This document shows, in pieces, positions 39,346 through 60,733 of a DNA stretch of 64,000 nt. The stretch covers positions 2,633-66,632 of the forward strand of contig DASYSM010000025.1 in NCBI GenBank assembly GCA_036003325.1. Direction: 5' to 3'. The translations under genes were made by a program, and so were the position numbers. Origin of the DNA: Candidatus Limnocylindrales bacterium (lineage in GTDB: Bacteria; Chloroflexota; Limnocylindria; Limnocylindrales; CSP1-4). The notes below the pieces were generated by a model, which worked only from the letters and a program-made list of their open reading frames with translations, searched no databases and was not told where the DNA came from. Positions within the stretch are counted from its first letter, which is position 1; each line of letters opens with the position of its first letter.

Positions 39346-40227
39346 TCAGCCCTTGATGGCGGTCGCCGGAACCGGCTCGGTCGCAGGTCGCGGGACCCGC
39401 TTGACCGGACGCAGGAAGAGCGTCAGCACGACCACGACGTAGGTCAGCCACGCGACGAAGGTGATGACCTCCGGCGTCGAGGTGTAGCCGAACAGTGCGT
39501 GCAGGAACTGGCCGAGGATGCTGCCGCCATCCTCCTCGTGCGGCAGGACCGCGCTCAGATCGAACAGCGTCTGGGTCCCGATGTTGATGACGTTGATCTC
39601 GATCAACTCGTGGATCGCCTTGGCGACCAGGCCGCCGGCGATGAACACGAGGGCGATCCCGGTCCAGCGGAAGAAGATGGCGAGGTTCAGCCGGCGCGAG
39701 CCGTGGTAGAAGCCGATCCCGAGAAGGCCGGCGATGCCGAGTCCGATGAGCGCTCCGACCAGCACCCAGATCGCGCCCTGATCGGCCGAGGCCGCCTGAC
39801 CGGTCAGGAACAGGGCGGTCTCGATCCCCTCGCGGATCACCGCCACGAAGGCCAGGATCACCAGCGCCGCGACGGACCCGCCGTCGATCGCTCGATCGAC
39901 CTTCGATTGGAGCTCGCCCCGCACGCTGGCAGCCTGGCGCCGCATCCAGAACAGCATCCAGGTCACGACCCCGGCGGCGACCAGCAGGGTGGCTGCCTCG
40001 AACAGCTGCTCGTAGGGCTCCTGGAACGACCCGACGGTGGCGTACAGCGCGAGCCCGAGCACAGCACTGAGCACGACGGCGAGCCCGGCACCCAGGAACA
40101 CGTTCGGGAAGAACCGCGCGTTCCCCGTCTTGGCCAGGTAGGCGCAGATGATGGCGACGATCAGCGCGGCCTCGACACCCTCGCGCAGACCGGTCAGCAG
40201 GCCACTCGTGAACGCTCCGACATCCAT
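39346..40227 (-). CDS. FTR1/EfeU family iron permease
   Basis: Two REXXE motifs are present (LREGVEAAL and IREGIETAL) in a 7-TM protein of 293 aa. Confidence 0.85.
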   Translation of the reverse strand: MDVGAFTSGLLTGLREGVEAALIVAIICAYLAKTGNARFFPNVFLGAGLAVVLSAVLGLALYATVGSFQEPYEQLFEAATLLVAAGVVTWMLFWMRRQAASVRGELQSKVDRAIDGGSVAALVILAFVAVIREGIETALFLTGQAASADQGAIWVLVGALIGLGIAGLLGIGFYHGSRRLNLAIFFRWTGIALVFIAGGLVAKAIHELIEINVINIGTQTLFDLSAVLPHEEDGGSILGQFLHALFGYTSTPEVITFVAWLTYVVVVLTLFLRPVKRVPRPATEPVPATAIKG

Positions 40228-40338
40228 CAGCCGCGGGACCTCCGTATCAAGGGGGCATGACCTCGCTATGCAAGGTCGCTTGTCACCCGGACTCTACCCA
40301 ACCGGCCAGATGAGGTCAAGCGTGGCCGGGATCGGCGG

Positions 40339-41061
40339 TCAGTCGCCCCCGCGGATCTCGAACCGAGCGAGCTTCCAGGTCCCGAGCAGGAACGCTCCGA
40401 CGAGCACGACGCCGAGCACGAGCACGCAGACCCCGGGCGCCAGGGGGGTGCTGCCCGGCACGTCCACACCGAGAGCCGAGGCGAGCCCCAGCGTGGCCTG
40501 GCGGATCGACAGGAACTTGGTTCCCTCGAGGATCCCGGACAGCACGCCCTCCCAGATGAGCACGTAGCCGAGACCCACCAGCAAGGCCCGCGACGTGAAG
40601 ATGCTGAGGGTCAGGAATGCCGCGGCGTAGGCACTGCCGCCGACCAGACAGGCGACCGAGTAGCCGACGACCGCCGTCGTCGGGTCGTTTCCGCTCCCGA
40701 GCAGGAGCCCCGCGATGACGATCGACGGGATCACGAGGACTGCGGTCAGCCCGACAGCCACCAGCATCTTGGCGAGGACGATCTTCCAGCGCGCGATCGG
40801 CTTGATCATCAGGTAGACCGCGGTCCCGTCCTCGATCTCCGAGCCGATCGCGGCCGTGCCGATGATCAACGCGACGAGCGGCATGACCGTTCGGACGACC
40901 AGGGTGTCGAGGACACGGTCGGCATCCGGACGCCCGCCGCTGACACGGACCAGCAACCCGATCAGCACTGGGAGCCCGACCAGCAGGATGAGCAGGATCA
41001 TCCGCCGCCGGCTCAGCAGCCCGCGCAGCGTGACATCGACGATCGGGGCGACGACGCTCAC
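40339..41061 (-). CDS. ABC-2 type transporter permease
   Basis: The 240-aa, 6-TM protein has a start that overlaps the upstream ATPase stop by 4 nt. Confidence 0.7.
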   Translation of the reverse strand: MSVVAPIVDVTLRGLLSRRRMILLILLVGLPVLIGLLVRVSGGRPDADRVLDTLVVRTVMPLVALIIGTAAIGSEIEDGTAVYLMIKPIARWKIVLAKMLVAVGLTAVLVIPSIVIAGLLLGSGNDPTTAVVGYSVACLVGGSAYAAAFLTLSIFTSRALLVGLGYVLIWEGVLSGILEGTKFLSIRQATLGLASALGVDVPGSTPLAPGVCVLVLGVVLVGAFLLGTWKLARFEIRGGD

Positions 41062-42044
41062 CGGCGGACCAGGTAGCTGAACACGCTCTCGAGCGAATCG
41101 TCGGTCGGCGCGACCTCGAACAGGGTCACGGCGTTGGCTCGTGCGACCTGTGGCAGGGCCCGCGTGAATCCGTCGTAATCGGCGGTCCGGATGGCCAGCC
41201 GGCCCCCGACCAGCTCGGCGCCGAACACGGACGGGTCCGCGAGCAACGCCGATCCGAGACGCCGGTCATCGGACGAGACGACCGTGAACGTGTGGGGCCG
41301 GTCGGTCATCAACCGCCGGATGGAGCGGAAGTCGCCGGCAGCGGCCAGCCGTCCGGCATAGACCACCAGGACCGAATCGGCGACCCGCTCGACCTCCTCG
41401 AGGATGTGCGACGAGAAGAGGATCGTTCGGCCCTCGGCCGCCATCGAGCGCAGCAGGGCCATCATGTGCAGCCGCTGGCGCGGATCGAGGCCGTTGAACG
41501 GCTCGTCGAGGAGCAGGACGCGCGGGTCGTGGACGAGCGCGCCGGCCAGCTTGGCCCGCTGGCGCATCCCCTTCGAGTAGGTGCCGATCGGGCGTTCCGC
41601 GGCCTCGGTCAGGTCGACCGCTGCGATCGCCCGGGCGGCCGCCGCGTCGGGATCGGGGACGCCCTGGAGACGCGCGTTGAACCGGGCGAAGCCGAGCCCG
41701 GTCAGGTACGGATGGACCGCCTCGCGCTCGGGTACGAGCCCGATCTGGCGGTACATCGCGGGCCGCCGCCAGGCCGACTCCCCGCCGACCAGGACCCGGC
41801 CCGCGGACGGCGCGAGGAGCCCTGCCATGAGGTGGAGCAGCGTGGATTTGCCGGCGCCGTTGGGGCCGAGCAGGCCCGTCACACCGGCACCGAGCGCGAA
41901 CGAGATGTCGTTGACGGCGACGACGTTGCCGTACCAGCGTGAGACGTGATCCACCTCGAGGGCGGCCGTCGGGCGCGGTGTCGGCGGCGGGGCGGCCTGG
42001 GGAACGCCGATCGGAGGCGTGTTCGCGCCGCTCGGGTCGGTCAT
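41058..42044 (-). CDS. ABC transporter ATP-binding protein
   Basis: Walker A is GPNGAGKST, the signature is YSKGMRQR and Walker B is LLLDEPFNGLD. There is a C-terminal extension domain. Confidence 0.9.
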   Translation of the reverse strand: MTDPSGANTPPIGVPQAAPPPTPRPTAALEVDHVSRWYGNVVAVNDISFALGAGVTGLLGPNGAGKSTLLHLMAGLLAPSAGRVLVGGESAWRRPAMYRQIGLVPEREAVHPYLTGLGFARFNARLQGVPDPDAAAARAIAAVDLTEAAERPIGTYSKGMRQRAKLAGALVHDPRVLLLDEPFNGLDPRQRLHMMALLRSMAAEGRTILFSSHILEEVERVADSVLVVYAGRLAAAGDFRSIRRLMTDRPHTFTVVSSDDRRLGSALLADPSVFGAELVGGRLAIRTADYDGFTRALPQVARANAVTLFEVAPTDDSLESVFSYLVRR

Positions 42045-42985
42045 GCCGCGATCCGCAGGTAGCGCCGGACGGTCAGCCCGACGGCGACGGCGATCTCGAC
42101 CGCGGCTGCCGCAACGTACAGCCAGCCCGGGAGGTCGAGCGACGCGACGACGGGGCTGTCGGGGATGGAGCCGAAGATCGCGGCGTTGGTGCCGTCGAGC
42201 ACGTCGACCGGGCTGAACAGGATGACGGCGCGGGCAAGGTCCTGGTTGGTCAGGCCGCCGATGAGGGCGACGATGATCGGCGGGATGATGAAGACCGCGA
42301 TGATGGCCGCGGTCGCGTAGGCACGGCGCGGGGTCCAGGCCGCGATCAGGCTTGCCAGCGCGCTCAGCAGACCCGCGACCAGCGCCGCCTGGAGCACGAA
42401 GTGCGGGACCTGCGGGAGCTCGTTGGACAACCCGGCGATCGGGTCCGGAGCGACCAGCACCCGCCCGACGAACAGCACGACGTAGGGCGAGACCTCGACC
42501 ACGAAGACGGCCGCCATCAGGCCGCCGACCTTGGCCAGCGCGTAGTCGGTGCGGGTCAGGACGCGCGAGAAGTAGAGCGGCAGGACGCCGTAGCGCTGGT
42601 CCCGTCCGAACAGCTCGGGAGCCTGCGCGGCACAGAACAGCGCGATGAAGATCGACAGCAGACCGTGGTAGTTCTCATAGCGGATCGGCGAGGCATCGGC
42701 CAGCGCGCCGCCCCCCGCCTGGGTCGACAACGCCACGAAACCGACCGCCAGCACGGCCGGCAGGAGGTAGAGCACCCAGAGCGTGAACGGCGCGACCTTG
42801 GCCCGTCCTCCACGACCGATCCCGAAGCTCGACCGGACGGTCTGCGCGAACAACGCGACGACGGCGCTCCGCCGACCGAGACGCGGACCGAGGTATGCCT
42901 GGTAGCCCAGGTCGTAGATGCTGCCGCCCGGCCCCCGTGCCGAGGTCGGGGCGCCGCCGGACGGCTGCGAGGTGCTGTCCGTCAC
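42041..42985 (-). CDS. ABC-2 type transporter permease
   Basis: The protein is polytopic. GTG 42985 overlaps the upstream ATPase stop (GTGA). I trimmed it from ORF 42041..43348. Confidence 0.7.
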   Translation of the reverse strand: MTDSTSQPSGGAPTSARGPGGSIYDLGYQAYLGPRLGRRSAVVALFAQTVRSSFGIGRGGRAKVAPFTLWVLYLLPAVLAVGFVALSTQAGGGALADASPIRYENYHGLLSIFIALFCAAQAPELFGRDQRYGVLPLYFSRVLTRTDYALAKVGGLMAAVFVVEVSPYVVLFVGRVLVAPDPIAGLSNELPQVPHFVLQAALVAGLLSALASLIAAWTPRRAYATAAIIAVFIIPPIIVALIGGLTNQDLARAVILFSPVDVLDGTNAAIFGSIPDSPVVASLDLPGWLYVAAAAVEIAVAVGLTVRRYLRIAA

Positions 42986-43950
42986 GCGGGCGTGCCCCCG
43001 TCGGCGGGTGGCTGGTCGGCGGCCGGCAGGCCGGCGGTCGCGGGGGCGACCGGCGCGTCGCGGAACAGGTCCTCGAGGCTCTGGCGTCGCTGCTCCAGTC
43101 GCACCAGGCGGAGGGACAGGTCGGCGACGGCATCGCGGACGATGTCGTACTGGGCGTCCTCGCTCACCGCGAGCAGGACGGTCCGACCGTCCGCGACGGC
43201 CTGCAGCCCACGCGCCGACAGCGCAGCCGCGAGCGTCGACTCGCCCTCCTCGACCTCGACCGCGAGGACACCGGTCCGTTCGGTGAAGGCACCCAGCGGC
43301 GCGGCGCGGAGCAGCCGGCCGGCATCGATGGCCACCAGGAAGTCGCACACCCGCTCGATCTCGCCGAGAAGGTGGCTGGCGACGATCACCGCGATCCCGA
43401 ACTCGGTCCCGGTCCGACGGACGAGCCCGAGCATCTCCTCGCGGCCCGCCGGGTCGAGTCCGTTGGTCGGTTCGTCGAGCAGTAGCAGCCTCGGGCCGTG
43501 GACGAGCGCCTGGGCGAGCTTGACCCGTTGCTTCATCCCGGTCGAGTAGCCGCCCATCGCCCGGTAGCGCTCCTCGTACAGGCCGACATGGCGCAGCACC
43601 TCGGCCGTGCGCTCGCGCGCCGAGGCGCTCGGCAGTCCGGACATGCGGGCCATGTGGCTGACGAAATCGGTCGCCGACGTGTCGGGCGGCAGGCAGTCGT
43701 ACTCGGGCATGTAGCCGACGAACTGACGGATGGTCGTGCCCTTCGTTCGCACGTCGAGGTCCATCACCGACGCGTCGCCCGAGGTCGGCGGCAGCAGCCC
43801 GAGCAGGATCTTGATGAGCGTGCTCTTGCCCGCGCCGTTCGCGCCGACCAGCCCGATGATGCCGGGCTCGAGGTCGAGGGTCAGGCCGTCGAGGGCGGTG
43901 ACGCCGCGCGGGTAGCGCTTCGTCAGGTTCTGCAGGGCGATGAGACTCAT
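42982..43950 (-). CDS. ABC transporter ATP-binding protein
   Basis: Walker A is GANGAGKST, the signature is YSTGMKQR and Walker B is LLLDEPTNGLD. Confidence 0.9.
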   Translation of the reverse strand: MSLIALQNLTKRYPRGVTALDGLTLDLEPGIIGLVGANGAGKSTLIKILLGLLPPTSGDASVMDLDVRTKGTTIRQFVGYMPEYDCLPPDTSATDFVSHMARMSGLPSASARERTAEVLRHVGLYEERYRAMGGYSTGMKQRVKLAQALVHGPRLLLLDEPTNGLDPAGREEMLGLVRRTGTEFGIAVIVASHLLGEIERVCDFLVAIDAGRLLRAAPLGAFTERTGVLAVEVEEGESTLAAALSARGLQAVADGRTVLLAVSEDAQYDIVRDAVADLSLRLVRLEQRRQSLEDLFRDAPVAPATAGLPAADQPPADGGTPA

Positions 43951-44002: not shown

Positions 44003-45895
44003 TCAGCGGAAACGGATGCTCGTGGCGACGGCCGTCCCGATCTTGATGATGGCGCTCGGCTGTCGGTCGGGCGACGCTTCCATGGCGATCACCAGCGGGC
44101 CTGCGTCGCTGTCGATGACCACGATCCGGGTCGTCCCGTTGGGTTCGAGGAAGAACGTCTCCGAGCCGTTCCCGAACAGGGCGACCCGCTCGCGCCCGGT
44201 CGGTGACAAGTCGATCGTGGTGGCCGTGTGCTTGTCGATCTTCCGATCCGTCGGCTTGCCGGCGGCGACGCCATCGGTGTCGATGAAGGCCTCGACCAGA
44301 AGGCGCGCGGTCGTCGGGGCGTCGGCTGGATCGCCGGACGGGTAGATGGTGGCGATCCGACTGGCGATCGTCAGACGGCCCTCGTCGCGGGCAAGAGCGA
44401 GCACGTCGGAGCGCGAATCAGTGACCGACCAGCCACGACCGATCTTGAACCGGATGGCCGGAACGAAATGGCTCGGCTCGTAGGTCCCCGCATCGAGGCC
44501 GCAGGGAACGCCGAAGAACGGCTCGCAGGCGTCGAGCATCCCGGGGCTGGGCGGCTTCGGGCCGGACGTCCGGGTCGGGGTCGAGGCGGGCTTGGCGAGT
44601 GCCGTCGGTCTCACGACGGGGGTCGGCGTCGGGCGCGCCGTCGGACGGGCAGTCGGACGCGCCGTCGGGCGGGGCGTCGGGCTGGCGAACGCGACCCCGC
44701 TCGGTCCGCCGCCGGGCAACGCTGCCAGAAGCAATGCCGCGGCGACGATCCCGACGACGACCGTCAGCACCATCAGCGGCGCCGCGATGACCGGTGACGC
44801 GCGGCGCACCGTGTCCAGCCCGACCGACGCTGAAGCAGCCGCACCGGACCCGACGCCAGCCGGTCGCAGCGGCGCGACCAGGCCGGGCATCGGCGGAGCC
44901 GCCCCGACCGGCGTCGGCACTCCGTGGGCGAGAGCCGCCGCCGCGGCTGCCGCCGCCGCGGCCAGCGCGGCCGAATCGGTCGCGACCGTCGGGCTCGCCC
45001 CATCAACGTGGGCCAGGGCCGACTCGAGCGCACTCGCGAACGCCTGACCGTTCGGGTAGCGGCGCGTCGGCTCCGGGTCGAGGGCATGGGCGACGATCGA
45101 ATCGAGCTCCAGCGGCACCTCGGGAGTGACATCGCGCGGGTGCGGCGCCGGGGCGCCGATCCGAGCTGCCGCGAGCCTCGCGGTCGTCTCGCCGCTCCAG
45201 GCCCGCCGGCCGGTCAGCGATTCGTACAGCACCAGCCCGAGGCTGTAGACGTCCGATGCCGCGGTCGTCGTCTCGCCCGTGGCCTGTTCCGGGCTGAAGT
45301 AGTGGACCGAGCCGAGCGTGGTCCCGGGCACGGCCCCTTCGGCGTCCGCCGACAGCCGGGCGATCCCGAAGTCGGTGACCATCGCGCGTCCGTCGCGTGC
45401 CAGCAGGATGTTGCCGGGTTTCACGTCGCGGTGGACGATGCCGCGGATATGCGCGACGCCGAGGGCGCGAGCGACGTCCAGCCCGATCCTGGTCGCGTCG
45501 CTCGGGGTGAGCCGGCCGACGCGTCGCAGGCGTCCGGCAAGATCCTCGCCCTCGATCAGCTCCATGACCAGGAACGGCTGGCCGTCGTCGGTACCGGTCT
45601 CGAGGCAGCCGACGATGTTCGGATGGCGCAGGACGGTCGCGGCGAGGGCCTCGCGCCGGAAGCGCATCGCGATGTCGGCGTCCTCGACGACCTCGCGACG
45701 GAGCAGCTTGACGGCGACGGTGCGGTCGAACCTGATGTCGGTCGCGCGGTGGACGGTGGCCATCCCACCGACCCCGATCAGCTCCGCGAGCCGGTAGCGG
45801 CCCGCGACCAGCCGCCCGACGTCAGCGGCGGGAGTGGCGGGTTCGCGCGGCTCGCTCACGCCGCGACGATAGCCCAGGTCCGGAGAATCGGCCAA
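44003..45895 (-). CDS. receptor-type Ser/Thr protein kinase with an uncharacterised extracytoplasmic C-terminal domain
   Basis: Hanks motifs are present: GVGGMATVH, VAVKLL, HRDVKPGNILL, DFGIA and SPEQA. A single TM (VIAAPLMVLTVVVGIVAAALLLAAL) is followed by a Pro/Thr/Arg linker and a roughly 190-aa domain. The start is TTG 45895, with GTG 45859 as an alternative. Confidence 0.9.
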   Translation of the reverse strand: MADSPDLGYRRGVSEPREPATPAADVGRLVAGRYRLAELIGVGGMATVHRATDIRFDRTVAVKLLRREVVEDADIAMRFRREALAATVLRHPNIVGCLETGTDDGQPFLVMELIEGEDLAGRLRRVGRLTPSDATRIGLDVARALGVAHIRGIVHRDVKPGNILLARDGRAMVTDFGIARLSADAEGAVPGTTLGSVHYFSPEQATGETTTAASDVYSLGLVLYESLTGRRAWSGETTARLAAARIGAPAPHPRDVTPEVPLELDSIVAHALDPEPTRRYPNGQAFASALESALAHVDGASPTVATDSAALAAAAAAAAAALAHGVPTPVGAAPPMPGLVAPLRPAGVGSGAAASASVGLDTVRRASPVIAAPLMVLTVVVGIVAAALLLAALPGGGPSGVAFASPTPRPTARPTARPTARPTPTPVVRPTALAKPASTPTRTSGPKPPSPGMLDACEPFFGVPCGLDAGTYEPSHFVPAIRFKIGRGWSVTDSRSDVLALARDEGRLTIASRIATIYPSGDPADAPTTARLLVEAFIDTDGVAAGKPTDRKIDKHTATTIDLSPTGRERVALFGNGSETFFLEPNGTTRIVVIDSDAGPLVIAMEASPDRQPSAIIKIGTAVATSIRFR

Positions 45896-45913: not shown

Positions 45914-47083
45914 TCACCGGCTGCTGGTGCGCATCTCGACAGTGTTCGCCCTGACGTAGTCCCAGTCCAGGGCGATTCCGAAGCCAGGGCGGTCCGGCAA
46001 GCGATAACGCCCACCAGCGATCCTGGTAGACATGTCAGTCAGGCGCCAGAAGAAGGGATCGCGCTCCTCGTCGAAGCATTCGGTGAAGGTGTGGTCGGGC
46101 ACGCTCGCCAGCAGGTGCGACGAGACCTGTGGCTCCTCGTGGTGGCCGAGCTGGACACCGAATGCGGCGCACAGACCGGCCGCTTTGCGCCAGATCGTCG
46201 GTCCACCTGCCCACGACGCGTCGAAGTTGGAGACGTCGATGGCACCGTCCATCACGAGGTCGCGCATGCCGCGCAGGGTGGTCTCGCTCTGGCCGGCGCA
46301 CACGGCCACGCCCGCCTGGTAGCGCACGTCGCGCATCCAGCGTCGATCGTTGGTCCAGCGGACAGGTTCCTCGAACCAGCGCAGATCGAGGTCGCTGACC
46401 CGCCGCGCGAACTCGACCGCCTCCGCCAGCTCGTATCCCTGGTTGGCGTCGGCCATCAGCGCGAAGTCGGGGCCGGCCGCCTCGCGCGCCACGCTGAACC
46501 GGGCGGCGTCCTCCGCTGGTGAGCGACCGCCGACCTTGAACTTCATGCCGCCAAAGCCCCGCTCGATGTAGCGCCGGACGGTGTCGGCGGTCTGGGCGGC
46601 GTCGAGGTGGTAGTACCCGCCGATGACGCTGATCGGTACCTCGTCCGTCACCGCACCCCACAGCCGATACAACGGCTGCTCGACCGCCCGACCCAGCGCA
46701 TCCCAGATCGCGGTGTCGACCGCGGCGATCGCCTGGAGCGCCAGGCCGCGGTCGCGCAGGATGTTGTTGGTTGCGGGCTCCATCGCCCGCCAGGCGCCCT
46801 CAGGGTCGCGGGCGCTCCGCCCGAGGACCGCCGGCGCGAGCTCGTCGTGGATGATCGCGGTGATGAGCGCCTGCTCGTCGTCGGTGTCGCCGGAATAGGT
46901 CTCGGCGATCACGCCATCGGCGGTGGTCAGGCGCACGACGATCGTGCACCGGTTGACCATCGAGTATGCCGACCCCGAGAACCGGCGAGCGAGCGGTGCC
47001 CGCAGCGCGATGGTCTCGAGACGGTCGATGACCAGCGAGCCTGCGGCGAGCGCCTCTGCCGCCGTCTCTGCGTCGGAGCTCAT
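45914..47083 (-). CDS. enolase-superfamily enzyme (mandelate racemase/muconate lactonizing family, MR-like dehydratase subgroup)
   Basis: The KxK motif is GGMKFKVGG. The metal ligands are in MADANQGY, WFEEPV and CAGQSE. The ATG overlaps the E1-beta stop (ATGA). Confidence 0.85.
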   Translation of the reverse strand: MSSDAETAAEALAAGSLVIDRLETIALRAPLARRFSGSAYSMVNRCTIVVRLTTADGVIAETYSGDTDDEQALITAIIHDELAPAVLGRSARDPEGAWRAMEPATNNILRDRGLALQAIAAVDTAIWDALGRAVEQPLYRLWGAVTDEVPISVIGGYYHLDAAQTADTVRRYIERGFGGMKFKVGGRSPAEDAARFSVAREAAGPDFALMADANQGYELAEAVEFARRVSDLDLRWFEEPVRWTNDRRWMRDVRYQAGVAVCAGQSETTLRGMRDLVMDGAIDVSNFDASWAGGPTIWRKAAGLCAAFGVQLGHHEEPQVSSHLLASVPDHTFTECFDEERDPFFWRLTDMSTRIAGGRYRLPDRPGFGIALDWDYVRANTVEMRTSSR

Positions 47084-48099
47084 CCTCCGACGCTCGCCCG
47101 CGCCGCGGCGACGATCCTCTCGACCGAGGGGATGATCTCGTCCTCGAGTGGCGGCGTGTACGGGATCGGCAGGTCGTCGGGCAGACTGACGCGCCGGGGC
47201 GCGCTCACCAAGGCCACGCCTCCGATGGTCAGCTCCGAGATGATCGTGGCGCCCCAGCCAGCGGCATGGACCTGCTCCTCCGCGATCACGATCCGGGCGG
47301 TCTTCTCGACCGATGCACGGACGGTCGGGAGGTCGAGCGGTCGGAGCCAGCGCAGGTCGATGACCTCCGCCTCGATGCCTTGTTCGGCCAGCTGCTCGGC
47401 AGCGGCGAGCGCGCGCTCGACCATCAGCAGGGTGGCCACGATCGTGACATCGCCACCGTTCCGTAGGACCGCAGCCTTGCCGATCTCGGCGACCTCCCCG
47501 CGGTCGACCGGCCCCTTCCGGCCATACAGCCCCTTATGCTCGTAGAAGAGGATCGGGTTCGGGTGCGCGACGGCCGCACGCAGCAGGCTGTAAGCCGAGC
47601 CCGGCGAGCCCGCAGTCACGACACGAAGGCCGGGCAGATGCATGAACCAGCTCTCGCCGGTCGCGCTGTGCTGCGTGCCGAACCGTCCTGTCGCTCCGCC
47701 GATGACCCGGACCGTGACCGGCACCGTCGTCTGCCCGCCCGACATGAAGCGGTACTTCGGGAGCTGGTTGACGATCGCATCGCCACCGCTCGGCAGGAAG
47801 TCCGCAAACATGATCTCGACCACCGGGCGCATGCCGAGCAGGCTCATCCCGAGCGCGACCCCTAAGAATCCGTTCTCGCAGATCGGCGTATTCCTGACCC
47901 GTCCCGGGCCGTATTTCTCGATCAGGCCACCGTTCGTCTTGAACACGCCTCCATCGGCGCCGACGTCCTCGCCCATCAGGAGGACTGCGTCGTCGGCCGC
48001 CATCGCATCATCGAGCGCGGCCGTGATCGCCTCACGGTAGGTCAGGACGCTCGCGACGTCGCCCACTGCCGGCGAGATGGCCTCAGTCGGCGTAGACAT
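47080..48099 (-). CDS. 2-oxoacid dehydrogenase E1 component, beta subunit
   Basis: The motifs LTYREAITAALDDAM..LLMGEDVG, DTPICENGF-like (NTPICENGFLG) and the transketolase C-terminal module are present. The start is ATG 48099, which overlaps the E1-alpha 3' end by 17 nt. Confidence 0.85.
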   Translation of the reverse strand: MSTPTEAISPAVGDVASVLTYREAITAALDDAMAADDAVLLMGEDVGADGGVFKTNGGLIEKYGPGRVRNTPICENGFLGVALGMSLLGMRPVVEIMFADFLPSGGDAIVNQLPKYRFMSGGQTTVPVTVRVIGGATGRFGTQHSATGESWFMHLPGLRVVTAGSPGSAYSLLRAAVAHPNPILFYEHKGLYGRKGPVDRGEVAEIGKAAVLRNGGDVTIVATLLMVERALAAAEQLAEQGIEAEVIDLRWLRPLDLPTVRASVEKTARIVIAEEQVHAAGWGATIISELTIGGVALVSAPRRVSLPDDLPIPYTPPLEDEIIPSVERIVAAARASVGG

Positions 48100-49033
48100 A
48101 TGGACGGGTCTCCTCGAGGGTCGGATATGGAGCGGCCGCGGCACGCTCGGCCGCGGCGTCGATCTCGGCCTGGATCTCCTGCCGGATCGCGGGCGGGTCG
48201 CCGGACGCGATCTCGCCATCATCGACCAGGCGGGCTCCGAGGATCTCGATCGGATCGCGCGCCCTCCAGGCGTCGAGCTCGCCGGCCGGCCGGTACTTGG
48301 CCGGGTCCGAGCGCGAGTGGCCGCGATAGCGATAGGTCTTCATCTCGAGGAGGCTCGGGCCGTCACCGCCGCGCGCCCGTTCTACTGCCTCGGCGGTAGC
48401 GGCATTTACGGCGTCGACGTCCTGACCATCGACGATGATCCCGGGCATCCCATATGGGTCCGCGCGCCGGGCCAGGTCATCGAGCGGGGTCGTCGTCCGC
48501 AGCGGGCTGTACTCGCCGTACAGGTTGTTTGCGACGATGAACACGACCGGCGCCGACCAGATGGCCGCCATGTTGAGCGCCTCGTGGAACGTGCCGATGT
48601 TCGTCGCTCCATCGCCGAAGAATGCCAGCGCCACGTTCGGCTTGTGCTGCATCTGGAACGCGACGGCGGCCCCGACGGCGATCGGCAGGCCTGCACCGAC
48701 GATGGCATTGGCACCGATGTTGCCCTTGCTGAAGTCGATCAGGTGCATCGACCCGCCGACGCCGCCCGAGCCTCCCGTCGAGCGACCCATCAGCTCGGCG
48801 AACGCCGTCTCGGGCGCCATGCCGAGCGCCAGGGCCTCGCCGTGGCCGCGATATGTGTTGGTTTGGACGTCGCCCGGGTGCATGGCCGCGATGGCGCCGA
48901 CGGACACCGCCTCCTGTCCCTGACACAGGTGCGTCGTGCCCTGGATCAGACCCGCCTGGAACAGCTCCTGGACCTTGTCCTCGAAGAGGCGGATGCGAAC
49001 AAGCATCCGGTACCAGGCGAGTCGATCGGTCAT
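48083..49033 (-). CDS. 2-oxoacid dehydrogenase E1 component, alpha subunit (TPP-dependent)
   Basis: The motif YRMLVRIRLFEDKV and the TPP-binding motif FFGDGATNIG...IVANNLYG are present. I prefer ATG 49033, because the stretch 49045-49083 looks like AT-rich operator sequence. The ORF is open up to ATG 49069. Confidence 0.85.
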   Translation of the reverse strand: MTDRLAWYRMLVRIRLFEDKVQELFQAGLIQGTTHLCQGQEAVSVGAIAAMHPGDVQTNTYRGHGEALALGMAPETAFAELMGRSTGGSGGVGGSMHLIDFSKGNIGANAIVGAGLPIAVGAAVAFQMQHKPNVALAFFGDGATNIGTFHEALNMAAIWSAPVVFIVANNLYGEYSPLRTTTPLDDLARRADPYGMPGIIVDGQDVDAVNAATAEAVERARGGDGPSLLEMKTYRYRGHSRSDPAKYRPAGELDAWRARDPIEILGARLVDDGEIASGDPPAIRQEIQAEIDAAAERAAAAPYPTLEETRPYVYAD

Positions 49034-49044
49034 CGGCCGAGCCC

Positions 49045-49083
49045 CATCTATCGTGATCAATGATCGCATCCAACGGTATCATG
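49045..49083. promoter_or_regulatory. AT-enriched operator-like words (CATCTATCGTGATCAATGATCG, GGTATCATG) in the E1-alpha/lipoyl divergent region
   Basis: This is a locally AT-rich patch in a GC-rich genome. It shares the CATCTA and GATCA words with 57814-57835 and 62167-62188. Confidence 0.3.
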
Positions 49084-49149
49084 TCGGTGGATGCGCGTCC
49101 GTGTGGTCGATGTCCTGGACGGCGCCAGCGGCTGCGACTGGAGGCACGC

Positions 49150-49395
49150 ATGACCCGGATCGCGATCGAGATGCCAAAGCTCGGCTACGACATGGAGACC
49201 GGCACGATCGGCGGCTGGTTGAAGGCGGTCGGCGACACCATCGCCCGGGGCGATGCGATCGCAGAGATCGAGACCGACAAGACGACCGTCGAGATGGAGG
49301 CGGCAGTCGGGGGCGAGCTGGTCGAGATCGTCCATGGGGCGGGCCAGGAGGTCCCCGTCGGCGCGACGATCGCCTGGCTCGAGGACGGCCAGTAG
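49150..49395 (+). CDS. stand-alone lipoyl-attachment (biotin/lipoyl) domain protein
   Basis: The 81-aa protein starts at ATG 49150, which follows GGAGG. The lipoyl-lysine motif is AEIETDKTTVEMEA. There is no E2 catalytic domain. I trimmed it from ORF 49060..49395. Confidence 0.8.
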   Translation: MTRIAIEMPKLGYDMETGTIGGWLKAVGDTIARGDAIAEIETDKTTVEMEAAVGGELVEIVHGAGQEVPVGATIAWLEDGQ

Positions 49396-49436
49396 GCAGT
49401 GGCCGACGGCGGGACGGGCGAACCCGGGGCGATCCC

Positions 49437-50600
49437 CTACTGCACGGGCGCCGACGCGGACGCCGGCTCGGTCACCGTGCCGAGCGTCGTCGAAGGCGGC
49501 GCGGCGGGGCGGATGGCGTCGCCGGTGTGTTCGGTGAAGTGGCAGGCCACGGACTGGCCCGTCCCCGCCACGTCCACGAGCTGTGGGACCTCGGTCACGC
49601 ATCGGGCCGGGTTGTCGAGCTGCTCGCGCAGCCAGCAGCGCGTGTGGAAGACGCACCCGCTCGGCGGATCGGCCGGGCTCGGCACGTCGCCCTTGAGCGT
49701 GATCCGCTGCCGCTTGCCCTTGGCGGCCGGGTCGGCGATCGGCGCGGCGGACAGCAGTGCCCTCGTGTACGGATGCGCCGGGTGCGCGTAGACCTGGCTG
49801 CGGCCGCCCATCTCCATGACCTTGCCGAGGTACATGACGACGACCCGATCCGAGATCTGGCGGACGACCGACAGGTTGTGAGCGATGAACAGGAAGGCGA
49901 TGCCGAGCCTGGCCTGGATATCCTCGAGCAGGTTGATGACCTGAGCCTGGATCGACACGTCGAGGGCTGACACGGGCTCGTCGAGGATCAGGATCTTCGG
50001 ATCCAGCGCGAGTGCCCGTGCGATCCCGACGCGCTGACGCTGCCCCCCCGACAATTGGTGCGGGTAGCGCTTGCCGTATTCGGACGTCAGCCCGACCAGT
50101 GACATGACCTCGTCGACCCGTGCCCGCCCAGTCCTCTTCTGGAACCGGCCGTGGATCTTGAGCGGCTCGGCGATGATCTCCGAGATCGGCAGCCGCGGGT
50201 TCAACGACCCGTAAGGATCTTGGAAGACCATCTGGAGCTCGCGCCGCAGCGGGCGCAGGGCCTTCCGGCCGAGATGGGTCACGTCGACATCGCCGACCAC
50301 GATCCGCCCGGCCGTTGGCTCGATGAGTCGGACGACGGCTCTCGCCGTGGTCGACTTGCCGCAGCCTGATTCGCCGACGAGGCCGACGGTCTCGCCCGCG
50401 GACAGGGTGAGCGAGACGCCCTCCACTGCGTGGATGCGCCGGCTCGAGCGGTTAAAGGGTCCGCCGCCGGCCCCGTAGTGGACGACCAGGTGCTCGATCC
50501 GAAGGAGCGGCTCCGCCGGCACAGCGGTCGGGGTCGTCGCGCTGGCAGACACGGTCGCGGGGGTCGCGGCGCCGCCCGCGTCGTCCGTCGTCTCACGCAT
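49437..50600 (-). CDS. peptide/nickel-type ABC transporter ATP-binding protein (DppF/OppF-like)
   Basis: Walker A is GESGCGKST, the signature is LSGGQRQR and Walker B is ILILDEPVSALD. An oligopeptide-type C-terminal domain is present. Confidence 0.9.
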   Translation of the reverse strand: MRETTDDAGGAATPATVSASATTPTAVPAEPLLRIEHLVVHYGAGGGPFNRSSRRIHAVEGVSLTLSAGETVGLVGESGCGKSTTARAVVRLIEPTAGRIVVGDVDVTHLGRKALRPLRRELQMVFQDPYGSLNPRLPISEIIAEPLKIHGRFQKRTGRARVDEVMSLVGLTSEYGKRYPHQLSGGQRQRVGIARALALDPKILILDEPVSALDVSIQAQVINLLEDIQARLGIAFLFIAHNLSVVRQISDRVVVMYLGKVMEMGGRSQVYAHPAHPYTRALLSAAPIADPAAKGKRQRITLKGDVPSPADPPSGCVFHTRCWLREQLDNPARCVTEVPQLVDVAGTGQSVACHFTEHTGDAIRPAAPPSTTLGTVTEPASASAPVQ

Positions 50601-51739: not shown

Positions 51740-53239
51740 TCACGCCGCCGGCACAAGCTGATCCGACCACCAGGTCATCAGCTGCTCCGACACCTCGTCG
51801 ATCAGCCGCTCGAGCGATCCCGGGGCCAGCACGGCGATCGTCTCCTGGTAGAGCCCCTTGCCGTACGTGTCGGCCGTCGGGAGATAGGCGACCCGGCCGC
51901 CGTCCATCAGCGTCATGACGACGACGTCGACGTCCGGGACGCTCTCGCGCAACGCTCGCTGCAGCACGTTGTAGTGCTCATCCTCGACCGCGACCCAGAA
52001 CACGTCCCCGGTCTGCATGACCATGACCGGGAGCGGATAGTCCGGGCCCGGCGGCAGCAGCCCGAGCTTGTCGATCAGCCGGTTCGCCTGTTCGGCCTTG
52101 CCGCGGCAGTCGGCCGCCTGCAGCTCGTCACCGGCAGCACGCTGGACAGCCTCCTCGGCGGTCCAGCGTTCGCGGTCGATGTATGCCTGGTCGACCGATG
52201 GCAGATCCGACCGGTACGCGAGTGGGACCGTCCAGCGCCGGACCCGCCAGCGAGCGGCGGCGATCCTATCCTCGTCGCTGAACGGTTCGTGGTCCCAGAG
52301 GCCCAGGGTCGTGCCCGAGATGGACGGTCCCTGGTAGCGGAAGCGTGTCCTGGGTGCCGGGATGGACTCGAGCGCCGACAGCGCCGCGTAGCCCAGCTCG
52401 CGCCCGTTGCGGTCGGCGACCGCCGTGTCACCGACGAACCCGTCGCGCGGGCCGGTGTCACCGGATGCGCCCTGGAGGAAGATGCACGGGACGCCGGTCG
52501 CGGCTTCGACGACTTCGCGCATGGCACCCGGGTAGTCCGGACTGATCAGCGAGTTCTGCCAGGCCAGCGTGGTGGGGTGACAGGAGTAGTTGACCATTGT
52601 CGCGAGGAGCGTGCCGTCAACCCCGCTCACGCGACCGACCAGCACGGTCGGGTCGAACGCGCCATCAGGGTTGAACCCGCATACCCACTGCTCGCTGACC
52701 GGGTCCCACAGGTCCCGGTTGCCGCCCATCTTGCTCTCTGCCCGGCCGAACGCGATCGTCGCCGGCTGGATCGCCGCGCGCGCCTCGGTGACGGCGGCAG
52801 CCACCTGTTCGGAGATCGTATCGAGGTACGGCCGGATCAGCTCGCCCCCGGGCAGGCCGGCCTGATCGAGCTTGGTCGGGGGCGAAGAATGAGTGTGCGA
52901 GTAGGTGCACATGAACTGGCCCGCGACGCCCGTCCGGCGCCGGACCTCGGTGGCCATGATCTCCTGCTCGGTCGCATACAGGAGACACATGTCCATCGCG
53001 ACGATGATCTCCTCGTCGCCCTCGTCGGCCATACCCGCGGGGTTGCGGAGGACCATGGCCGTGGCGGTCAGCGGCCGATGCACCCCGGTCACCCGGTCCC
53101 ACGTCGCCCGCGGCCACCAGCGGCCGTAGATGCCGACCGGGGGCGTGATGTCTCGACGGGCCACGCCGAACAGTACGTCCCCCTGGTGGGCCGCGATCTC
53201 GAGCACTCCCGAACCCTCCGAACGGATGTTCATGATCAA
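51740..53239 (-). CDS. neutral/alkaline ceramidase-like hydrolase (uncharacterised)
   Basis: The segments VARRDITPPVG..GR and TYSHTHSSP resemble the ceramidase_alk N-terminal domain from memory. The ATG overlaps the creatininase-family stop (ATGA). Confidence 0.55.
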   Translation of the reverse strand: MIMNIRSEGSGVLEIAAHQGDVLFGVARRDITPPVGIYGRWWPRATWDRVTGVHRPLTATAMVLRNPAGMADEGDEEIIVAMDMCLLYATEQEIMATEVRRRTGVAGQFMCTYSHTHSSPPTKLDQAGLPGGELIRPYLDTISEQVAAAVTEARAAIQPATIAFGRAESKMGGNRDLWDPVSEQWVCGFNPDGAFDPTVLVGRVSGVDGTLLATMVNYSCHPTTLAWQNSLISPDYPGAMREVVEAATGVPCIFLQGASGDTGPRDGFVGDTAVADRNGRELGYAALSALESIPAPRTRFRYQGPSISGTTLGLWDHEPFSDEDRIAAARWRVRRWTVPLAYRSDLPSVDQAYIDRERWTAEEAVQRAAGDELQAADCRGKAEQANRLIDKLGLLPPGPDYPLPVMVMQTGDVFWVAVEDEHYNVLQRALRESVPDVDVVVMTLMDGGRVAYLPTADTYGKGLYQETIAVLAPGSLERLIDEVSEQLMTWWSDQLVPAA

Positions 53240-59641: not shown

Positions 59642-60733
59642 TCATCCGATCCGGTACGCCTCGACCGCTCGCCAGTCGAGCTCGACACCCAGGCCAGCTG
59701 TTTCGGGAGCGATGAAGTCGCCTCCGTCCAGGGTGACCCAGGTCGAGAACAGCTTGTACAGCGTCTCGTAGTCGCGCGCGGGATCGGTCATCTCGACGGC
59801 CCGAACGTTCTGGAACGCTGCGCCGAGATGGATGTGGATCTCCGGGAACACGTGCGGACTGACCGGCAGGCCGTGTGCGGACGCCATCGCGATCACCTTG
59901 ATGACCTCGGAGATCCCGCCGATGGTCGTCGCGTCGACCCGCACGATGTCGGCCAGGCCCGAACGGAGGAGTTCGTTGAATGACCAGCGACCGACGTAAT
60001 CCTCGCCAAGCGCGAGTGGGATCCGGGTTGCGGCGCGCAGGTTCGTGATGTGGCCGGCCAGGTCGGAAGGGAATGGATCCTCGAGACAATCGAGCTCGAG
60101 GCCCTCCCAGCCCCGAACGATCGGCAGCACGTCGAGGAGATTCCGCCAGGCCCAGTGTGCGTCGTAGCTCAGCGCGGCATCCGGAGCGGCTGTCCGGGAT
60201 GCCTGGAGCCGCGCTGTGTCCTCGCCGAGCGTACCTGCGGCGATCTTGATGATCGGGAATCCCCGGGCAGCATAGTCGGCCACCTCGGCCGCCAAGTCGT
60301 CGATCGTCACGTCGTCGTTCGGATAGCCGCCGGCGACCTGCGCGGGCACCCGTGTCCGGTACCCACCCAGGAGACGCCACAGCGGCACCGCGAGGGCCTT
60401 GGCCTTGAGGTCCCACAGGGCGATGTCAATGGCAGACAGCGCCCGCATGAAGATGCCCCGCTGCCCGATGATCAGGTTCGCGTCGTAGACGCGGTGCCAC
60501 AGCCGTTCGGTGTCGCGCGGATCCTGGCCGATGATCAGAGGTGCGATGTTCCGGTCGATGATGGCTGCCACCGGAGAGTTCCGGGTCATCCCGAACCCGA
60601 TGCCGGCCAGCCCCTCGTCCGTGGTCACCTCGGCGATGACGTATTCGCGCGATGCGTAACGGATCGGACCCATCACGATCGGCCGAGCCATCGGCACATC
60701 GACCGTGATGGCACGGACCGAGCGGATCCTCAA
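59642..60733 (-). CDS. enolase-superfamily enzyme (mandelate racemase/muconate lactonizing family)
   Basis: The N-terminal capping domain reads VIAEVTTDEGLAGIGFG. The barrel ligands are in SYDAHWAW, CLEDPF and LALGEDY. The start overlaps the aminotransferase stop by 4 nt. Confidence 0.85.
   Translation of the reverse strand: MRIRSVRAITVDVPMARPIVMGPIRYASREYVIAEVTTDEGLAGIGFGMTRNSPVAAIIDRNIAPLIIGQDPRDTERLWHRVYDANLIIGQRGIFMRALSAIDIALWDLKAKALAVPLWRLLGGYRTRVPAQVAGGYPNDDVTIDDLAAEVADYAARGFPIIKIAAGTLGEDTARLQASRTAAPDAALSYDAHWAWRNLLDVLPIVRGWEGLELDCLEDPFPSDLAGHITNLRAATRIPLALGEDYVGRWSFNELLRSGLADIVRVDATTIGGISEVIKVIAMASAHGLPVSPHVFPEIHIHLGAAFQNVRAVEMTDPARDYETLYKLFSTWVTLDGGDFIAPETAGLGVELDWRAVEAYRIG

Follow-up and report, generated by a model that had tools for sequence, protein, structure and literature searches.

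How does the E1 component of a 2-oxoacid dehydrogenase work, if the only other component encoded beside it is a free lipoyl domain? The 2-oxoacid dehydrogenase complexes of the textbooks work as assemblies and act on few known substrates, and the question is raised by a stretch of 64,000 nucleotides from a Candidatus Limnocylindrales bacterium, referred to as the window (C25:2633-66632 of an assembly of 3.0 Mb in 187 contigs that is 92.9% complete). Here, contiguous genes for E1-alpha, E1-beta and an enolase-superfamily enzyme, which we call the triad, lie divergently to a gene for a stand-alone lipoyl-domain protein. Sequence comparisons lead us to give about an even chance to the reading that these genes encode a functional but reduced accessory dehydrogenase of the pyruvate dehydrogenase (PDH)/acetoin type, in which E1 would load a diffusible lipoyl carrier within a catabolic pathway, probably one for acid sugars. 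Each component is of a kind already known, and their architecture and pathway context vary these kinds in a new way; full-text literature searches turned up neither an E1-enolase operon nor a stand-alone lipoyl protein that partners E1.

The triad and its lipoyl protein

The genes for E1-alpha (48083-49033, minus strand; 316 aa, thiamine diphosphate (ThDP)-dependent and of the PDH-y/acetoin type), E1-beta (47080-48099, minus strand; 339 aa, Transket_pyr and Transketolase_C domains) and the enolase-superfamily enzyme of the mandelate racemase (MR) subgroup (45914-47083, minus strand; 389 aa, MR_MLE_N and MR_MLE_C domains) overlap, as the original prediction had claimed from the same DNA. The stop codon of E1-alpha, TGA at 48083-48085, lies 17 nt within E1-beta, whose ATG is at 48099, and an ATGA at 47080-47083, read directly, is common to the E1-beta stop and the enolase start. 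Beyond a divergent spacer of 116 bp (49034-49149), in which scans detected neither an Rfam family nor a sigma-70 or terminator consensus, follows the lipoyl gene (49150-49395, plus strand; 81 aa, lipoyl-Lys44). That this gene encodes a lipoyl domain and nothing else was likewise borne out, as the open reading frame (ORF) from ATG 49150 gives Biotin_lipoyl (PF00364) alone in Pfam. The convergent DppF gene ends at 49437, leaving a junction without an E2 catalytic-core gene (49396-49436); because DppF ends 41 nt past the lipoyl stop, there is no room for a peripheral subunit-binding domain or a catalytic domain. Profile searches found no E2 catalytic domain and no E3 anywhere on the contig, in line with their predicted absence from the 64 kb.

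The two subunits (together E1ab) carry the domain set of a heterotetrameric E1, with E1_dh (PF00676, 1.9e-81) in E1-alpha and the transketolase-like Pyr and C-terminal domains (PF02779, 2.5e-33; PF02780, 1e-29) in E1-beta. Pfam domains were assigned on the full ORFs, i.e. 48083-49069(-) for E1-alpha, 47080-48222(-) for E1-beta and 49060-49395(+) for the lipoyl protein. The ThDP motif GDG-X(24-27)-NN is present at residues 140-170 of E1-alpha and is kept, together with the GHS histidine (His239 within YRYRGHSRSD), in 42/42 orthologues; the ThDP-activating glutamate of E1-beta (Glu44 in GEDV) and its QHS histidine (His144) are kept in all 43 orthologues. The alpha/beta histidine pair, whose roles were mapped by motif and literature and not by structure, has been proposed to provide the proton donors in reductive acyl transfer, and isolated lipoyl domains are reductively acylated in vitro by their cognate E1 (PMC8146983). 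The best match of E1-alpha is TIGR03182, which at 339.8 bits stays below the cut-off of 393.85, so that E1-alpha does not count as a PDH E1-alpha equivalog.

The lipoyl protein resembles the lipoyl domains of E2 over its whole length. PF00364 matches at 7.6e-17 (61.3 bits), the size of about 80 aa and the lysine turn are those of the E2 type, and an end-to-end alignment with PDH E2 lipoyl domains places ETDK on the lipoyl-lysine, which is Lys44 within IETDKTTVEME and is predicted to be lipoylated. The Pfam scan of the 81-aa protein, which returned PF00364 alone, gave no GcvH fold (PF01597). Among the copies from the window and 26 relatives, 26 of 27 have exactly 81 aa and one has 82 aa, the D/E-K turn is kept in all 27, and pairwise dN/dS (ratio of nonsynonymous to synonymous substitution rates) has a median of 0.28 among the 26 copies that are 81 aa long.

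The supposition that this free carrier is tied to E1 is supported by its distribution: within 131 congeneric genomes, the lipoyl gene occurs in 26 and the enolase orthologue in 29, both are found in 23 (so that the lipoyl protein accompanies the triad in 23/26 lipoyl-bearing genomes), and 3 have the lipoyl gene only, 6 the enolase gene only and 99 neither (Fisher p = 4e-17). The six enolase-only genomes are all at most 92% complete; four of them are in 370-590 contigs and two are 60-71% complete. Two of the three lipoyl-only genomes still have the lipoyl gene beside E1ab. G014 has it in divergent orientation to an E1ab pair (E1-alpha 77% and E1-beta 66% identical to those of the window), and in G082 it lies within an operon of hydantoinase A/B, two successive E1ab pairs, the lipoyl gene and a zinc-dependent alcohol dehydrogenase gene. 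The latter locus (L146, G082:C5:1-12000), in which the hydantoinase/oxoprolinase A and B genes stand next to a first (48% identity) and a second (36-39%) E1ab pair, holds no E2 core and represents a second E2-less E1 system with the same carrier family. The lipoyl gene abuts E1-alpha in at least 5 lineages, and the divergent arrangement of the window recurs in L046-L048, L071, G011, G014 and G115.

Elsewhere in the assembly, the sole E2 core (PF00198) is encoded on contig C68 in a canonical operon with its E3 (Lpd), and C68 also holds an E1ab pair and LipA. Pyr_redox_dim proteins are found only on C68 and C86, and a gene of the LplA/LipB type is on C61, so that genes for lipoylation are present. 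As the sole PF00198 protein and the linked Lpd are on C68, there is no E2/E3 pair just outside the window, which the original prediction had named among the findings that would refute it; the genome-wide PF00198 and Pyr_redox_dim scans rule such a pair out. The genome has three E1-alpha genes, on C25, C68 and C169. The third E1ab (C169:43183-45150) is PDH-y-like at 338 bits, with no E2 or lipoyl gene nearby, and is flanked by a gene for an M24/creatinase-like peptidase and by one that, by eye and from its N-terminal sequence, resembles 3-hydroxyisobutyrate dehydrogenase. An E1-alpha match of any kind is found in 89/131 congeners, and in most of these matches are at about 50-57% identity, the level of the C169 copy.

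Fused, split and missing E2

Relatives of the window show what has become of the E2. A full E2 with lipoyl, E3_binding and 2-oxoacid_dh domains stands beside E1ab in Ktedonobacterales (L109), in metagenome-assembled genomes (MAGs) of Spirochaetaceae (L112, L120), in Aggregatilineales (L123, L124) and in Phototrophicaceae (L129). The genes for E2, E1-alpha, E1-beta and the enolase-family enzyme form one co-directional string in L112, L120 and L109, and in L123, L124 and L129 the enolase gene is 2-4 kb from E2/E1ab. The E1-alpha sequences of Limnocylindrales constitute a single clade (98 in the Shimodaira-Hasegawa-like approximate likelihood ratio test, SH-aLRT) with the clusters that have a full E2 branching outside, and no cluster of this clade contains a full E2. 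Among these clusters, an E2 with the E3_binding domain, as expected for an assembled E1-E2-E3 particle, is confined to distant lineages.

Within the genus, a PF00198 scan of five congeners revealed that the lipoyl gene is immediately followed by another E2 core. In G027, for example, the 81-aa lipoyl gene and a 244-aa core gene, whose product has the motif DHRVVDG, are translationally coupled by a GTGA overlap; cores of 226-244 aa follow the lipoyl gene in G027, G020, G029, G007, L071 and L104, and in L071 core and lipoyl gene are divergent from E1-alpha, E1-beta and enolase, so that all parts lie side by side. The core gene is present in 16/131 congeners, all of them triad carriers. Since only about 20 residues precede PF00198, without PF02817, the core has no subunit-binding domain, and an assembled E1-E2-E3 particle is for this reason not expected. 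The core matches positions 212-433 of TIGR01349 and also PRK14843 and PRK11857, and is 38-41% identical to the E2s of the clusters compared to 35% for the housekeeping E2, values too near each other to decide its affinity. The lipoyl protein has more in common with the E2 of the L109 cluster (54% identity, 48% over 91 aa) than with housekeeping E2s (39-41%). The Limnocylindrales lipoyl and core pair is a split E2. The idea of a lipoyl protein that is E2-free by primary design does not survive this result, as a split E2 begins with this protein in 16 congeners and as a full E2 accompanies E1ab in other phyla. The release of an acyl group or aldehyde without transfer to coenzyme A (CoA), which had been offered as an alternative, becomes less likely for the same reason: relatives carry a split or full E2, and the ancestral chemistry therefore ends in acyl-CoA.

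Among the closest known counterparts of this system is the mitochondrial and alpha-proteobacterial PDH (TIGR03182, TIGR01349), which is the best match of E1-alpha and is also matched by the split core, and the lipoyl protein aligns best to the lipoyl domains of mammalian PDH E2. The system differs in scores below the equivalog cut-offs, in the split without a subunit-binding domain and in the absence of the E2 core here. A redistribution of lipoyl and catalytic modules among polypeptides is also seen in the models NF008854 (E1-beta with an N-terminal lipoyl domain, of which the window lipoyl protein matches positions 3-78) and in the lipoyl-less acetyltransferases PRK11857 and PRK14843. In those models, however, the lipoyl domain is fused to another subunit or the binding domain is on the core, whereas here the 81-aa lipoyl protein is free and the core lacks the binding domain.

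The split core is not found in the present assembly, where tblastn of all contigs returns only the housekeeping E2 (35% identity). It is also absent in the near-identical JGI contigs L046-L048 and in 10 congeners (G011, G014, G115, G082, G152, G108, G096, G022, G069 and G067). In five core-less genomes a hydrolase gene, X, begins about 50 bp after the lipoyl gene, in core-bearing genomes X follows the core, and the lipoyl gene abuts E1-alpha in four core-less lineages. Because core-less junctions recur among congeners, with X directly after the lipoyl gene, the loss of the core has been recurrent and clean. Importantly, what was left behind is maintained. Between the window and L046, which are both core-less, share the DppF/lipoyl junction and are separated by a dS of about 0.5, dN/dS amounts to 0.08 for E1-alpha, 0.15 for E1-beta, 0.06 for the enolase gene and 0.24 for the lipoyl gene, and all four genes are under purifying selection between these two core-less lineages.

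X is a ceramidase-like protein of about 489 aa (L042 7344-9203(-), L152 6124-7593(-)) whose gene shares an operon with the lipoyl gene in congeners, in the orders lipoyl-core-X or lipoyl-X. It matches PF04734 at 32.6 bits, barely above the cut-off. The ceramidase-like protein of the window (51740-53239, minus strand; 499 aa) is a paralogue of X at 29% identity; its gene belongs to the Dpp operon and lies at 2.3 kb from the lipoyl gene. X could be a candidate amidase or thioesterase with the (acyl-)lipoyl protein as its substrate.

The enolase-family enzyme and its surroundings

The third product of the triad belongs to the MR subgroup: it has both MR_MLE domains (3e-53 in Pfam), the KxK motif, three carboxylate ligands and a His-Asp dyad, and K181/K183, D212, E238, E267, D288, H314/H315 and E317, with roles assigned from motif position, are invariant among the orthologues and a 50% paralogue. 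It thereby shares the MR fold, KxK, three metal ligands and the His/Asp motifs with acid-sugar dehydratases such as L-talarate/galactarate dehydratase, and with its nearest PDB entries 4H83, 3MSY and 3NO1 (432 bits), structural-genomics proteins with the generic name mandelate racemase/muconate lactonizing enzyme. The best NCBIfam match, TalGalacDh, however, scores only 162.3 bits against a cut-off of 500, and no characterised equivalog (TalGalacDh, AraD, RhamD, ManD, Gci and others) is reached at the NCBIfam cut-offs. The JGI name 'D-galactarolactone cycloisomerase' was rejected as a weak KEGG orthology (KO) transfer, since the equivalog cut-offs are not reached. On these comparisons, the protein falls in no characterised isofunctional family. 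No characterised acid-sugar dehydratase is known to be co-operonic with an E1.

An orthologue of 68-93% identity is present in 29/131 congeners, nearly always after E1-alpha and E1-beta, and the contiguous triad is found in 29/131 congeners as well as in about 48 of 80 related loci in a scan of species-representative genomes. The link spans Limnocylindrales, Ktedonobacterales, Aggregatilineales, Phototrophicaceae and Spirochaetaceae MAGs, and in several lineages the lipoyl protein stands beside E1ab, so that the neighbourhood, the conservation of which had been proposed as a check, is indeed kept. In a phylogenetic tree, the window enolase protein falls within the E1-linked clade (SH-aLRT 99), and its six nearest relatives have no adjacent E1. 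The commonest neighbours of the triad are genes for a short-chain dehydrogenase/reductase, a divergent LacI regulator, a family-III CoA-transferase and a GFO/IDH/MocA dehydrogenase, as well as for a sugar ATP-binding cassette (ABC) transporter and an SMP-30 lactonase, together with further enolase paralogues and a set for corrinoid methyltransferases. Judged by these neighbours, the context of the triad is oxidative sugar or acid-sugar catabolism.

Several of these neighbours deserve mention on their own. The family-III CoA-transferase gene directly follows the enolase gene in 19/48 triad loci (L055, L056, L058, L082, L083, L092 and others), and its product has as best NCBIfam matches succinate-glutarate and succinyl-CoA:mesaconate CoA-transferases, below the cut-offs. 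The corrinoid set, which consists of a URO-D-like methyltransferase, a B12-binding protein, a pterin-binding protein and a RACo activator, lies beside the LacI/E1ab-enolase cluster in 11-13 loci (L060, L065, L072-L074, L079, L089; upstream) and hints at the catabolism of an O-methylated sugar or cyclitol. Two candidates for a missing acyltransferase were discarded: an AcoC-type alpha/beta-hydrolase E2 (c20), which in six type-B loci sits after the CoA-transferase gene by unrelated genes and has no counterpart in this genome, and the secreted protein c28 encoded upstream of E1-alpha, which has a signal peptide, shows no homology and is likewise not found in this genome. Triads of Limnocylindrales-like sequence (64-80% identity) on contigs assigned to 'Patescibacteria group' (L105, DATJGH01) and 'Sulfomarinibacteraceae' (L058, DATIUS01) are probably due to mis-binning rather than transfer. 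A plasmid collection searched for cultured homologues gave only matches of at most 44% identity.

In the window itself, Pfam places on the minus strand upstream a Dpp-type importer, accompanied by genes for creatininase-family and ceramidase-like proteins. The Ser/Thr kinase gene (44003-45895, minus strand; Pkinase) does begin, as noted before, after an 18-nt gap from the enolase gene, with TTG at 45895, but it stands beside the triad in no relative; this rules it out as an operon member, and the adjacency is probably incidental to the system. Further downstream, genes for an FTR1 permease and an ABC-2 exporter (39346-43950, minus strand) tie the window by synteny to the 'type B' loci (L082, L083, L087, L093, L103), and this synteny persists though the genes immediately after enolase differ. 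A second enolase-superfamily gene (59642-60733, minus strand), whose product is 27-29% identical to the first, belongs to an aminotransferase/cupin/HisD-like cluster. In G115 (L050, C4; L150, C6), the closest species-level relative, the enolase gene (93% identical) directly follows DppF, and the lipoyl/E1ab module is on a separate contig from it, with E1-alpha in two frames, owing to a frameshift or a long-read error. The window looks like the Dpp-enolase locus of G115 with the lipoyl/E1ab module inserted, or else G115 has lost the module there.

A free lipoyl carrier and its alternatives

If the system is a functional reduced dehydrogenase, the enolase-family enzyme would yield a 2-oxo acid, made from a hydroxy acid or acid sugar; E1ab would decarboxylate this product on ThDP, with reductive acylation of Lys44 of the free lipoyl protein. 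This loading is supported by the conservation of the catalytic residues and the co-inheritance of the genes. The acyl-dihydrolipoyl protein would then diffuse, like the H protein of glycine cleavage, and might be discharged to CoA by an E2 catalytic domain in trans, provided by the split core in relatives and by the C68 housekeeping E2 here, after which the dihydrolipoyl group would be re-oxidised by the C68 Lpd. The likeness to glycine cleavage, where, as we propose here, a decarboxylase reductively loads a small unattached lipoyl carrier and a shared dihydrolipoamide dehydrogenase re-oxidises it, is one of mechanism and not of membership: the window carrier is an E2-type PF00364 domain and not GcvH, and its loader is a ThDP-dependent E1 instead of the pyridoxal phosphate-dependent P-protein. 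A route from a dehydratase to E1 had already been put forward in the original prediction. The conserved link speaks for it, and the sugar dehydrogenase, lactonase and sugar ABC transporter neighbours fit it; an obligatory coupling of the two enzymes is not upheld.

A number of observations weigh against this reading. Neither the enolase protein nor E1 reaches any equivalog cut-off, and in the window the triad has amidohydrolases and a Dpp-type importer for neighbours instead of a sugar cluster. The enolase gene is found without adjacent E1 in 11 loci (63-93% identity, e.g. L050-L054), and in the nearest relative, L050 of G115, it comes directly after a Dpp/creatininase operon; because of such cases, the E1-enolase coupling, though frequent and old, has to be regarded as separable. 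A distance of 16-70 kb parts the lipoyl gene from the triad in most congeners, and the genomes counted for co-occurrence are kin that do not provide phylogenetically independent cases. With an assembly that is 93% complete, a core gene could in principle have escaped assembly. Finally, because the genus-core C169 E1ab has neither E2 nor lipoyl gene, it may be the rule in the genus that E1s share the housekeeping E2.

A stricter form of the free-carrier idea, which we put forward tentatively and consider less likely than not, would be a non-assembled, glycine-cleavage-like dehydrogenase, in which a sugar-acid-specific E1 loads the 81-aa carrier and discharge proceeds without any dedicated E2. 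Candidate off-loaders would be the housekeeping E2 in trans, the hydrolase X or the family-III CoA-transferase that follows enolase in many relatives. An orthologue of this cluster CoA-transferase is absent from the present genome, which has only a 37-41% paralogue on C73.

The sharing of one E2 leads to the strongest rival, which we nevertheless consider unlikely. E1ab of the window could dock on the C68 E2 via the subunit-binding domain of the latter and acylate the lipoyl domain of that E2, while the 81-aa protein would be unrelated to E1ab catalysis and serve, for example, as a lipoate relay or reservoir or as a partner of X. The three E1ab pairs and single E2 of the genome, the C169 E1ab just mentioned and the position of the lipoyl gene in most congeners, far from the triad and co-operonic with X, are all in accordance with this. 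It would leave unexplained, however, that the lipoyl gene and the split core are nearly confined to triad genomes (23/26 and 16/16), that the lipoyl gene abuts E1-alpha in at least five lineages and comes last in the run of two E1ab pairs in G082, and that L071 holds core, lipoyl gene and triad together. Moreover, by the identities given above, the lipoyl protein resembles the E2 of the L109 cluster more than it does the housekeeping E2s.

Distinctly unlikely, in our view, is an acetoin-type C-C cleavage, by which E1ab would split an alpha-hydroxyketone or diketone into acetyl-lipoyl and an aldehyde, with the enolase-family enzyme performing an epimerisation- or cycloisomerisation-like step. 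The acetoin dehydrogenase system (AcoA/AcoB, AcoC, AcoL) does share the heterotetramer-type E1ab of the same sequence neighbourhood and an accessory catabolic rather than central role. The best NCBIfam match of the lipoyl domain is the lipoyl part of AcoC (82.9 bits), the lipoyl gene of G082 stands with two E1ab pairs and an alcohol dehydrogenase gene, and an acetyl product would be easily accepted by the housekeeping E2. Many JGI names of E1 orthologues read 'acetoin:DCPIP oxidoreductase alpha'; yet these KO-style names are divided between PDH and Aco, and E1-alpha scores equally as PDH-y type. Also, the contig has no AcoC-type E2 core or AcoL E3 and the window no AcoR, AcoX, AcoL, butanediol dehydrogenase or acetoin genes, and the conserved sugar dehydrogenase, lactonase and dehydratase neighbours yield 2-keto-3-deoxy acids. 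The translational coupling to an enolase-superfamily gene is a further difference. Aco operons are not known to contain an enolase-superfamily gene, and literature searches gave no such case.

It is very improbable that the locus is decaying after loss of the core, or that E1ab is a lipoate-independent decarboxylase or carboligase that releases an aldehyde beside a leftover lipoyl ORF, since the missing core gene, the frameshifted E1-alpha of G115 and the solitary enolase genes, which would fit, are set against strong purifying selection on all four genes in two core-less lineages, a lipoyl ORF of nearly constant length with its lysine motif, and invariant histidines for reductive acylation.

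Coming back to the reduced dehydrogenase with a free carrier, the wider result is an E1(-E2) family linked to enzymes of the enolase superfamily in the catabolic clusters of several bacterial phyla. The series from a fused E2 via a split E2 without binding domain to the lipoyl carrier alone represents a natural dissection, in which the remaining parts are under selection, and it bears on the extent to which cells can do without the E2 scaffold and on whether a free lipoyl domain could serve as a diffusible acyl carrier. If the non-assembled reading were true, it would add a new oxidative-decarboxylation branch to non-phosphorylative acid-sugar catabolism, in which a 2-keto-3-deoxy acid is converted to a 3-hydroxyacyl thioester that is one carbon shorter. 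Such a new fate for 2-keto-3-deoxy acids could matter for the carbon turnover by abundant uncultured soil Chloroflexota.

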